Source: a virus. Taken from it: DNA of 64,000 nucleotides. Each line of letters begins with the position of its first letter. Within the stretch, counting starts at the first letter, position 1. Made by a program: the position numbers and the translations under genes. The stretch spans positions 1 through 64,000 of the IMG/VR virus record IMGVR_UViG_3300034355_001150. The stretch is one strand, 5' to 3'. The notes beneath the pieces are model-generated. The model did no database searches. It was not told the DNA's origin and saw only the letters and a list, made by a program, of their open reading frames with translations. Shown piece after piece: positions 40,894 through 42,006 of this stretch.

Positions 40894-42006
40894 CTAAATT
40901 TGTGGCGGCCAATTCTTTTTACGGTTACCAGCAATCTCCCCAGTTAACCATCTGGGATCATCTTTGGTTGTCCTAAACATATTACCTTGCAAATCCTTCA
41001 CAACCATAGTATCTTTGGCGTGTCCAACCATTTCTCCTGAAATCCATCTTGGATCATCTGCGTTGATGTGGTGAATGACGCCATGTTCATCTCTTGCTTT
41101 TATGGTACCATTGGTGGTACTAACTAACTCACCCGATAGCCGTCGTGGATCATCTATTGCTATATGGTGGACTTTGCCGTTCTGATCTTTAGCAGGCATC
41201 ATGCCTTTAGTGGTGCCGAATAGTTCTCCTGATAACCATTCAGGGTCATCTTTGCCGACGACACGAACCCTTCCGTTTTTATCTCTTGTCGCCACTTTTC
41301 CAGTCGAGATACTAACCAATTCACCCGACAAACGCCGAGGATCATCCATACTGATACGATAAATGTTTCCGTCTTTATCTTTAGCTGGCATCATACCTTT
41401 ATTGATTCCGACTAATTCACCCGACAAACGCCGAGGATCATCCATATTGATATGATAAATGTTTCCATCTTTATCTTTAGCTGGCATCATTCCTTTAAAA
41501 ATATGCATAATATTACCAGTCTGTATTCTCGGGTCATCTATTGATACTCGCATTAAGTTTCCGTCTTTATCTTTAGCTGGCATCATACCTTTATTGATTC
41601 CGACTAATTCACCCGACAAACGACGTGGATCATCAAGTGATACAAAATAGACAAACCCATCTTTATCACACACAGATACCTTTCCAGTAACATAACACTT
41701 GTAACAATCAGATTTATTTAACCACTTATCATCGGCAACCACTTTAAGTCGACGCAAAACTTTATGCTCCCACAGTACTGCGTCATCTGGCGTAGAGAAG
41801 CCTTGGCGTCTGATCTGAATGATATCAGGATCACCGTGTTGTTCTCGGAACTTGGCTACATACTTGCTCGACGTCTGGTATTTAACCCAGAATAAGCCGG
41901 GATCGGCATCTTTTCCATACTTGCTTCCATAATACCAAACATTTAGCCAGGACCAGCCGATCAGGTAGGTATAGTAAATAGGTGTTTTTAATTTTTTGGT
42001 TGCCAT
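40894..42006 (-). CDS. Seg-like GIY-YIG endonuclease with eight C-terminal 32-aa tandem repeats
   Basis: YTYLI...WYYGS, YQTSS, conserved-position Glu (WE) and WLN; AAGGAG SD. Confidence 0.85.
   Translation of the reverse strand: MATKKLKTPIYYTYLIGWSWLNVWYYGSKYGKDADPGLFWVKYQTSSKYVAKFREQHGDPDIIQIRRQGFSTPDDAVLWEHKVLRRLKVVADDKWLNKSDCYKCYVTGKVSVCDKDGFVYFVSLDDPRRLSGELVGINKGMMPAKDKDGNLMRVSIDDPRIQTGNIMHIFKGMMPAKDKDGNIYHINMDDPRRLSGELVGINKGMMPAKDKDGNIYRISMDDPRRLSGELVSISTGKVATRDKNGRVRVVGKDDPEWLSGELFGTTKGMMPAKDQNGKVHHIAIDDPRRLSGELVSTTNGTIKARDEHGVIHHINADDPRWISGEMVGHAKDTMVVKDLQGNMFRTTKDDPRWLTGEIAGNRKKNWPPQI
40915..41685 (-). repeat. 8 x 96-bp (32-aa) tandem repeat array
   Basis: Consensus GMMPAKDKDGNIYHIxxDDPRRLSGELVGINK; DNA copies 96 bp apart (e.g. 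41324, 41420, 41612). Confidence 0.92.

Follow-up and report, generated by a model that had tools for sequence, protein, structure and literature searches.

Phage homing endonucleases draw on mix-and-match DNA-binding modules, and the repeat units of transcription activator-like effectors (TALEs) are 33-35 amino acids (aa) long. Here, we describe a gene on the minus strand of a 64,000-nucleotide (nt) stretch of viral DNA (positions 1 to 64,000 of the IMG/VR record IMGVR_UViG_3300034355_001150; hereafter, the window), at 40894..42006, whose 370-aa product joins what we take to be an N-terminal GIY-YIG nuclease domain of the Seg type to eight tandem units of a 32-aa repeat. We consider it to be a free-standing Seg-type homing endonuclease that uses the eight-unit array as an arm for DNA binding and targeting, a reading to which we assign a probability of about 65%. 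The repeat, a predicted beta-hairpin unit of which full-text literature searches found no description, appears to be a large module family that lacks a name; the 2006 GIY-YIG superfamily survey, in its accessible part, features NUMODs and other partners and no such repeat (PMC1564403).

The closest published idea is that of the T5orf172 homing endonucleases, which, according to the accessible portion of the source, possess tandem CapR/DUF723/DUF4397 zinc-finger DNA-binding repeats that duplicate, recombine and change specificity (PMC10448857). The 370-aa protein shares with them the tandem-repeat plan and a mosaic of units; however, it shows no T5orf172 Pfam match and no zinc-binding Cys pattern (one Cys in the 256-residue array), and its repeats are predicted to form a continuous body. 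The T4 Seg family (SegA-G), for which the part of the GIY-YIG survey at hand describes intronless homing (PMC1564403), is similar in the columns of the N-terminal domain (Y..Y, YxG followed by H/K, Y..S, E and YN; compared with SegE, SegD and SegG) and in being encoded by free-standing genes between phage genes, with T4 segD lying antisense between the structural genes 23 and 24. The 32-aa unit is absent from SegD, SegE, SegG and I-TevI, the only four T4 proteins compared (whole-protein E-values of 0.17-0.29 in a six-sequence search), and a six-frame scan of the 50-kb stretch from 100 to 150 kb of T4 recovered 0 matches to it. I-TevI and I-BmoI likewise combine a GIY-YIG N-terminus with an extended C-terminal part, consisting of a linker, NUMOD3 and a helix-turn-helix (HTH); I-TevI is the top structural match of the N-terminal domain studied here, and some relatives of the 370-aa protein end in I-TevI_DNA-bd or NUMOD3. 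Unlike these enzymes, the 370-aa protein is not housed in an intron and its C-terminal part is wholly made up of the 32-aa array, with no NUMOD1, NUMOD3, NUMOD4, I-TevI_DNA-bd, zinc finger or HTH detected in Pfam at E<=1.

The original prediction had likened the protein to a natural TALE nuclease (TALEN). The likeness holds for the layout of a nuclease fused to tandem repeats of similar unit length (32 aa here), a layout shared with engineered monomeric I-TevI-TALE fusions, as far as the accessible parts of the reports on these go (PMC4065259, PMC3644105). It does not extend to the units, which are predicted beta-hairpins rather than a two-helix solenoid, are 31-84% identical to one another rather than near-identical, vary at about 11 positions rather than 2 with no small residue alphabet (see below), and lack a Pfam TAL-repeat match.

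The coding sequence and its catalytic part are as follows:

40894..42006 (minus strand): whole coding sequence, 370 aa plus a TAG stop; the frame is intact with no internal stop
41686..42006 (minus strand): N-terminal domain, residues 1-107, with the GIY-YIG fold of the T4 SegE/SegD type, from an AlphaFold2 (AF2) model, a structure match and an alignment

The AF2 model attains a predicted local distance difference test (pLDDT) score of 92-98 across residues 11-100. When its residues 10-100 were compared with 48,161 chains of solved structures, the top match was the I-TevI catalytic domain (1ln0_A; Z 7.9, root-mean-square deviation 2.7, 85 residues aligned), and the next four were all GIY-YIG proteins, namely PD-T4-3 (9u75_A, Z 6.5), UvrC (1ycz_A, Z 4.6), T4 EndoII (2wsh_A, Z 4.5) and At-HIGLE (Z 4.1); Foldseek aligned the domain with 1mk0 at a probability of 0.92 and a TMt of 0.64. 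The matches of residues ~10-100 in tblastn are genes annotated as GIY-YIG, Seg-like or homing endonuclease, at 37-52% identity, from T4-like phages of Variovorax, Sinorhizobium, Acidovorax, Stenotrophomonas, Acinetobacter and others. A MAFFT alignment with T4 SegE, SegD, SegG and I-TevI, together with column frequencies from 220 relatives, shows that Y14, Y25-Y26-G27, K29, Y43, S46, E80 and N97 are kept: Y12-T13-Y14 and Y25-Y26-G27 pair with the G-I-Y and Y-V-G of I-TevI and the F-V-Y and Y-I-G of SegE, and the relatives display Y14 in 85%, Y25 in 86%, G27 in 91%, the catalytic E in 85% and the N in 82% of cases. In I-TevI, E75 and N90 are the catalytic residues and R27 is a conserved one, at positions that a count along its T4 sequence bears out; N97 is in exact register with N90 and the Seg YN motif, and E80 occupies the column of the Glu of SegE, SegD and SegG, one column off E75. 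The column of K29, two residues after the YxG, holds H, R or K in 79% of the 220 relatives; SegE and SegD have H there, and SegG has K. Pfam tallies made on two sets of relatives (n=80 and n=114) recovered SegE_GIY-YIG (PF19835) in 24/80 and 38/114 and GIY-YIG (PF01541) in 10/80 and 17/114. We take the N-terminal domain to be a Seg-type GIY-YIG nuclease, inferring its activity from the fold and the conserved residues. The Seg-like catalytic domain of ~105 aa in the original prediction is borne out by the I-TevI fold match, the Seg alignment and the tblastn matches to GIY-YIG and Seg-like genes, at a measured length of 107 aa.

The rest of the protein is the repeat array:

41590..41685 (minus strand): repeat unit 1, residues 108-139
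41494..41589 (minus strand): repeat unit 2, residues 140-171, with the most divergent second half (RIQTGNIM)
41398..41493 (minus strand): repeat unit 3, residues 172-203, with 86% nt identity to unit 4 and codons 18-32 nearly those of unit 1
41302..41397 (minus strand): repeat unit 4, residues 204-235
41206..41301 (minus strand): repeat unit 5, residues 236-267
41110..41205 (minus strand): repeat unit 6, residues 268-299
41014..41109 (minus strand): repeat unit 7, residues 300-331
40918..41013 (minus strand): repeat unit 8, residues 332-363, with an AF2 pLDDT of about 59-68 from residue 331
40894..40917 (minus strand): seven-residue tail KNWPPQI and stop codon, with no further domain after the array

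Residues 108-363 (window 40918-41685) thus comprise eight back-to-back units of exactly 32 aa each, in which D7, G10, D18, D19, P20 and G25 are identical in 8/8 units, just as had been read from the sequence at the outset. The strings then quoted for positions 2-6 (MMPAK/KVSVC/KVATR/TIKAR/TMVVK) and 29-32 (GINK/HIFK/SIST/GTTK/STTN/GHAK) are all present, along with a seventh, GNRK, at the latter. Tandem Repeats Finder reports a 96-nt period (3.3 copies, score 398) and a 192-nt row (score 420). Pairs of units are 31-84% identical in aa, the best pair being 3/4 (86% nt, 84% aa), and the remaining pairs are 45-71% identical in nt. Units 1 and 3 differ within codons 18-32 at two codons, both synonymous, and 11 of their codons 2-17 change the amino acid, a mosaic that fits recombination between units. 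Hence, the DNA-level near-identity first claimed for some units applies to codons 18-32 of units 1 and 3, and not to whole units, which reach at most the 86% of pair 3/4. As for the ongoing duplication and shuffling that had been proposed, the mosaic of units 1 and 3 and the identity of units 3 and 4 speak for recombination between units; ongoing duplication, however, is not the dominant process because two units of the same protein resemble each other hardly more than two taken from separate proteins (mean identity 53% versus 49%).

AF2 models of the full 370-aa protein and of four units attain mean pLDDT scores of 90.3 and 96.8, respectively. In both, every unit features a strand at positions 2-6, a tight turn at K8-D9-G10, a strand at 12-16, a one-turn helix from D18-D19-P20-R21 and a short strand at 26-28; the corresponding DSSP assignments per unit are two 5-residue strands, one 5-residue helix and one strand of 2-3 residues. 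High confidence across the unit borders suggests that the array would be one continuous rigid body instead of a string of separate beads. Neither Pfam nor NCBIfam has a family that matches the repeat above cut-off, in agreement with the initial failure to recognize it as a named one, and no solved structure matches it. Sequence searches of solved structures with the protein and with a repeat profile gave nothing better than E 0.31. With the four-unit model, the best Foldseek match is a propeller lyase (E 0.028, template modeling (TM) score 0.17), and VIA-align recovers 7 of 48,161 chains at Z>=2, all ribosomal proteins, with a best Z of 2.6; elongated repeats score poorly in such comparisons, and a missing structure match is no proof of a new fold. 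The look-alikes among the predicted viral structures of BFVD are phage GIY-YIG or homing-endonuclease proteins.

Two candidate identities were set aside. Sub-threshold Pfam matches (DUF6897, Phage_Cox and SH3_1; in relatives, Myosin_N, Cupin_3, Hva1_TUDOR and LSM) are read as a generic hairpin likeness. The family phrog_12434, labelled 'HNH endonuclease', matches the 370-aa protein in seven stretches (E 7.5e-45), and the link to HNH was not confirmed: ESM Atlas rows with HNH_3/HNH attain TM scores of only 0.22-0.29, and no HNH family is among the most frequent 25 of 28 and the most frequent 25 of 26 Pfam families tallied in the two sets of relatives.

A query with the whole protein recovered 824 relatives at E<=1e-3 (8000 candidates scored). 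Building a repeat profile and collecting homologs had been proposed as a check from the start; the 32-column profile of the eight units, searched against 1.84 billion cluster representatives (clustering at 50% identity), gave 1469 matches at E<=1e-3, nearly all of them GIY-YIG proteins; 884 of these reach <=1e-10 and 231 reach <=1e-30. In 235/235 inspected relatives, there are 2-13 units per protein (mode 6; 11 have eight and 15 more than eight), preceded by a median lead of 106 residues. The N-terminal fusion partners are GIY-YIG types. A minority has a further module after the array: NUMOD3 (6/80 and 8/114), I-TevI_DNA-bd (4/80 and 3/114), an I-HmuI NUMOD-like module (2/80) or HTH. In seven relatives, the array begins close to residue 1, and these look like genes truncated in metagenomic data. 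The repeat occurs in 6/50,697 records of isolated phages, two of them with only a 50-residue piece; this rarity may explain why the repeat has been overlooked. The Pseudomonas phages Milchi and Astolliot each carry their own copy and so say nothing about alleles without the gene.

The array takes the place that DNA-binding modules have in GIY-YIG homing endonucleases, and by this analogy, together with the modules after the array in relatives and the BFVD look-alikes, we regard it as the probable DNA binder. In 43/235 relatives, as in the 370-aa protein, <=15 residues come after the last unit, which leaves the array as their sole non-catalytic part. An entropy and covariation profile of 658 distinct aligned units reveals a conserved scaffold (G1, V5, K6, D7, G10, N11, V15 and D18 to L27) and 11 of 32 positions that are most variable (2, 4, 9, 12, 13, 14, 16, 17 and 29-31; entropy >=2.6 bits). 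The concentration of variation in the hairpin strands and at positions 29-32, first noted in this single protein, is thereby seen both here and in the 658 units of the relatives. Positions 2, 4, 12, 14 and 16 alternate with hydrophobic residues that are conserved (V3/V5 and F13/V15), and by the usual hairpin geometry should lie on one exposed face along with the conserved K6; the strongest covarying pair, 2-14, lies across the hairpin. The variable positions are rich in T, S, K and N, with 14% K+R versus 6% D+E (17% and 18% at the conserved positions), a bias compatible with a face that contacts nucleic acid.

We envisage that the N-terminal domain would cut DNA and that the eight units would act as a continuous rigid arm for binding and targeting, keeping the nuclease at a long target site of a competing phage whose genome is without the nuclease gene. 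Repair of the break would then, by analogy with the Seg proteins, copy the gene and its neighborhood into that genome. G1, V5, K6, D7, G10, N11, V15 and D18-L27, among others, would build the scaffold of the arm; positions 2, 4, 12, 14 and 16 and the linker 29-31 would contact DNA and set the target; and arrays would change via unit duplication and recombination between units. A stronger version, in which the 32-aa repeat would be a new natural scaffold that reads DNA module by module, with a small fixed number of base pairs to each hairpin face and the order of units predicting the target, strikes us as quite improbable. The reading face would then be positions 2, 4, 12, 14 and 16, perhaps with 29-31. 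The 658 units display 593 distinct combinations at positions 2/4/12/14/16 and 155 distinct pairs at 12/14, and any code, if there is one, would be combinatorial, as in zinc-finger and pentatricopeptide repeat (PPR) arrays, not the two-residue kind of the TALEs.

Several observations weigh against a DNA-targeting homing endonuclease, beginning with the arm itself. It is only mildly basic (41 K+R versus 38 D+E, isoelectric point 8.8), and each unit has three invariant acidic residues, with E26 also kept in 7/8 units. The ratio of nonsynonymous to synonymous changes (dN/dS) between units is <1 (0.27 in pair 3/4, 0.37 in pair 1/3), giving no sign of diversifying selection in what is a tiny sample. 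The arm has no solved DNA-binding look-alike (best Z 2.6, and 0/996 Foldseek candidates at Z 2), and unit number shows no correlation with how long the C-terminal tail is (rho -0.07, p 0.29, n=225). The near-neutral net charge, the dN/dS and the want of a small alphabet at the variable positions would also suit an arm that is a rigid spacer or ruler, or a sequence-tolerant DNA clamp, with the variable positions merely an unconstrained surface; such an arm accords, moreover, with the predicted stiffness of the array, the separate known DNA-binding modules (NUMOD3, I-TevI_DNA-bd, HTH) that follow the array in many relatives and the tails of >40 residues in 141/235 of them. We deem this unlikely, in that the 370-aa protein and 42 relatives, with <=15 residues after the array, would leave a site-specific enzyme no other targeting part, the variable positions are biased to T, S, K and N and to basic over acidic residues, and 2-13 units make an odd spread for a fixed ruler.

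At the nuclease end, the Z of 7.9 to I-TevI is just below 8, the tool's caution line for a merely common arrangement. No residue of the 370-aa protein aligns with I-TevI Arg27, nor does any of SegE or SegD. At E<=1 in Pfam, neither the full protein nor the N-terminal domain alone has a GIY-YIG match, and NCBIfam is likewise negative, so the Seg-like call needed the support of fold and alignment. The missing Pfam match and Arg27 equivalent might be taken, together with the divergent last unit and its low model confidence, as marks of a decaying, non-working homing-endonuclease remnant. To this we give hardly any credence: the frame is intact over 370 codons, the family-conserved residues of the N-terminal domain are all kept along with the six invariant residues in 8/8 units, the gene is conserved in strains from several sequencing runs, and it comes with a ribosome-binding site and a terminator hairpin. 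The signals around the gene are the following:

42014..42020 (minus strand): ribosome-binding site AAAGGAG, 7 nt before the nuclease ATG, read from the sequence
40859..40879 (no strand): hairpin AAAA-GCCCC-GAA-GGGGC-TTTT between two convergent genes, read from the sequence
42146..42153 (minus strand): GATAAATA box, T4 late-promoter-like, 140 nt upstream of the nuclease ATG, read from the sequence
42071-42078 (plus strand): second GATAAATA box, likewise T4 late-promoter-like and facing the first; the two share the spacer that lies upstream of both the nuclease gene and a 135-aa plus-strand gene

The hairpin looks like a candidate two-way intrinsic terminator, and is absent from the output of a consensus scan; the box at 42146..42153 is a possible promoter of the nuclease gene. 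With its intact frame, AAAGGAG, terminator hairpin and presence across four runs, the gene looks functional.

Strain-level variation bears on the homing reading from both sides. Of 16 runs listed, 8 hold at least half of the sampled words, all recorded as lake water, freshwater or 'metagenome', and no RNA run is among the listed runs that hold the phage. Contigs from four lake/freshwater runs (X3, X5, X6 and X8), compared over a 6-kb stretch, contain the nuclease gene in all four and break inside the repeat DNA; at least six base differences fall inside the gene among those listed, with 181 further rows for the whole 6-kb stretch. A single contig of run X3 has a loose end at 40838, one base past the stop of the neighboring gene, and single contigs of runs X6 and X8 have loose ends at 42014, inside the ribosome-binding site, with at least 255 unlike letters beyond; on the minus strand, these letters keep AAAGGAG and continue in a TTG-led frame unlike the nuclease. 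Since the loose ends fall at both gene borders (40838 and 42014), an allele with other content in exactly the nuclease slot probably exists, and other strains may have a different gene in this slot; we see in this a hint of cassette behavior, short of proof of homing. On the opposing side, no gene-free allele was found and no contig skips the nuclease gene in these four runs. That absence would also suit an arm with a partner other than DNA (such as RNA, a component of the cell envelope or a protein of phage or host) in a domesticated nuclease serving, for example, in host DNA breakdown or competitor exclusion. Such an arm would be in keeping with the weak sub-threshold matches of the units to small barrels of the SH3-like, Tudor and LSM types, which in many cases bind peptides or RNA, and with invariant acidic residues that are unusual in a DNA binder. 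This is highly improbable in our view: every fusion partner of the array that recurs in more than a handful of relatives (E<=1e-3) is a nuclease or a DNA-binding module, the gene stands alone and antisense between structural genes like T4 segD, and the borders of the strain polymorphism match those of the gene.

Were the arm to read its target one unit at a time, it would offer a compact, monomeric and naturally nuclease-linked alternative to TALE arrays; at least 1469 clusters would then be natural monomeric repeat-array nucleases of 2-13 units, with targets that could be predicted and rebuilt by unit swaps. If the arm is no such reader, it would still provide the targeting for a class of selfish genes that is common in large aquatic phages, and merits a family entry. 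A structure of the arm with DNA should be within reach given the pLDDT of 96.8 of the four-unit model.

The virus record spans 89,766 bases and is 27% complete according to CheckV, which suggests a jumbo phage as its source; we take this phage to be an uncultured one from lake water. The nuclease gene runs antisense within a plus-strand tail and baseplate block, whose structural genes are very large, and has baseplate-wedge-like paralogs and a 2832-aa fiber-like open reading frame (ORF) at its sides; it is the sole minus-strand ORF with relatives among the ORFs listed for 39500-43500, and stands alone in this block with its own ribosome-binding site and terminator, outside any intron. Megablast found no phage match to 10 kb of the window. 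In a viral contig collection, a pattern search found no copy of the 370-aa protein, and the flanking proteins at 39908-40837 and 42114-42521 have no relatives; a query with the fiber N-terminus drew 44 loci with low-identity repeat matches that are not syntenic. In runs X6 and X8, 330 bases (40426-40757) inside the gene at 39908-40837 are swapped for 762 other letters, and 65 bases (42526-42592) in the spacer before the 2832-aa ORF for 404 other letters; these are strain-level indel/replacement hot spots on both sides of the nuclease gene. A contig of run X5 leaves the window at 41943, upstream of nuclease codon 22, and encodes YTYLIGWSQL versus YTYLIGWSWL in the window; it is a diverged allele or a paralog of the nuclease.

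Further genes of the window are the following:

39908-40837 (plus strand): 309-aa, very acidic ORF with D/S/E runs and the internal direct repeat RILELALVKESNYHDS, present twice; no PHROG match
37685-38416, 38413-39144, 39141-39857 and 51149-51862 (plus strand): ORFs of ~240 aa
19566-35342 and 42651-51149 (plus strand): very large ORFs of 2111, 1254, 1845 and 2832 aa
61513-63141 (minus strand): GroEL-like chaperonin (phrog_5725, E 1.4e-172)

Two of the ~240-aa ORFs were scanned, and both align with one and the same part of PHROGs for baseplate-wedge or virion proteins; this suggests a paralog family of receptor-binding tips. The 2832-aa ORF displays short Asn/Gly/Ala/Ser-rich repeats (NxANTDSNVANIIVDIANT and an AxAIGxxAG series) typical of fiber proteins.

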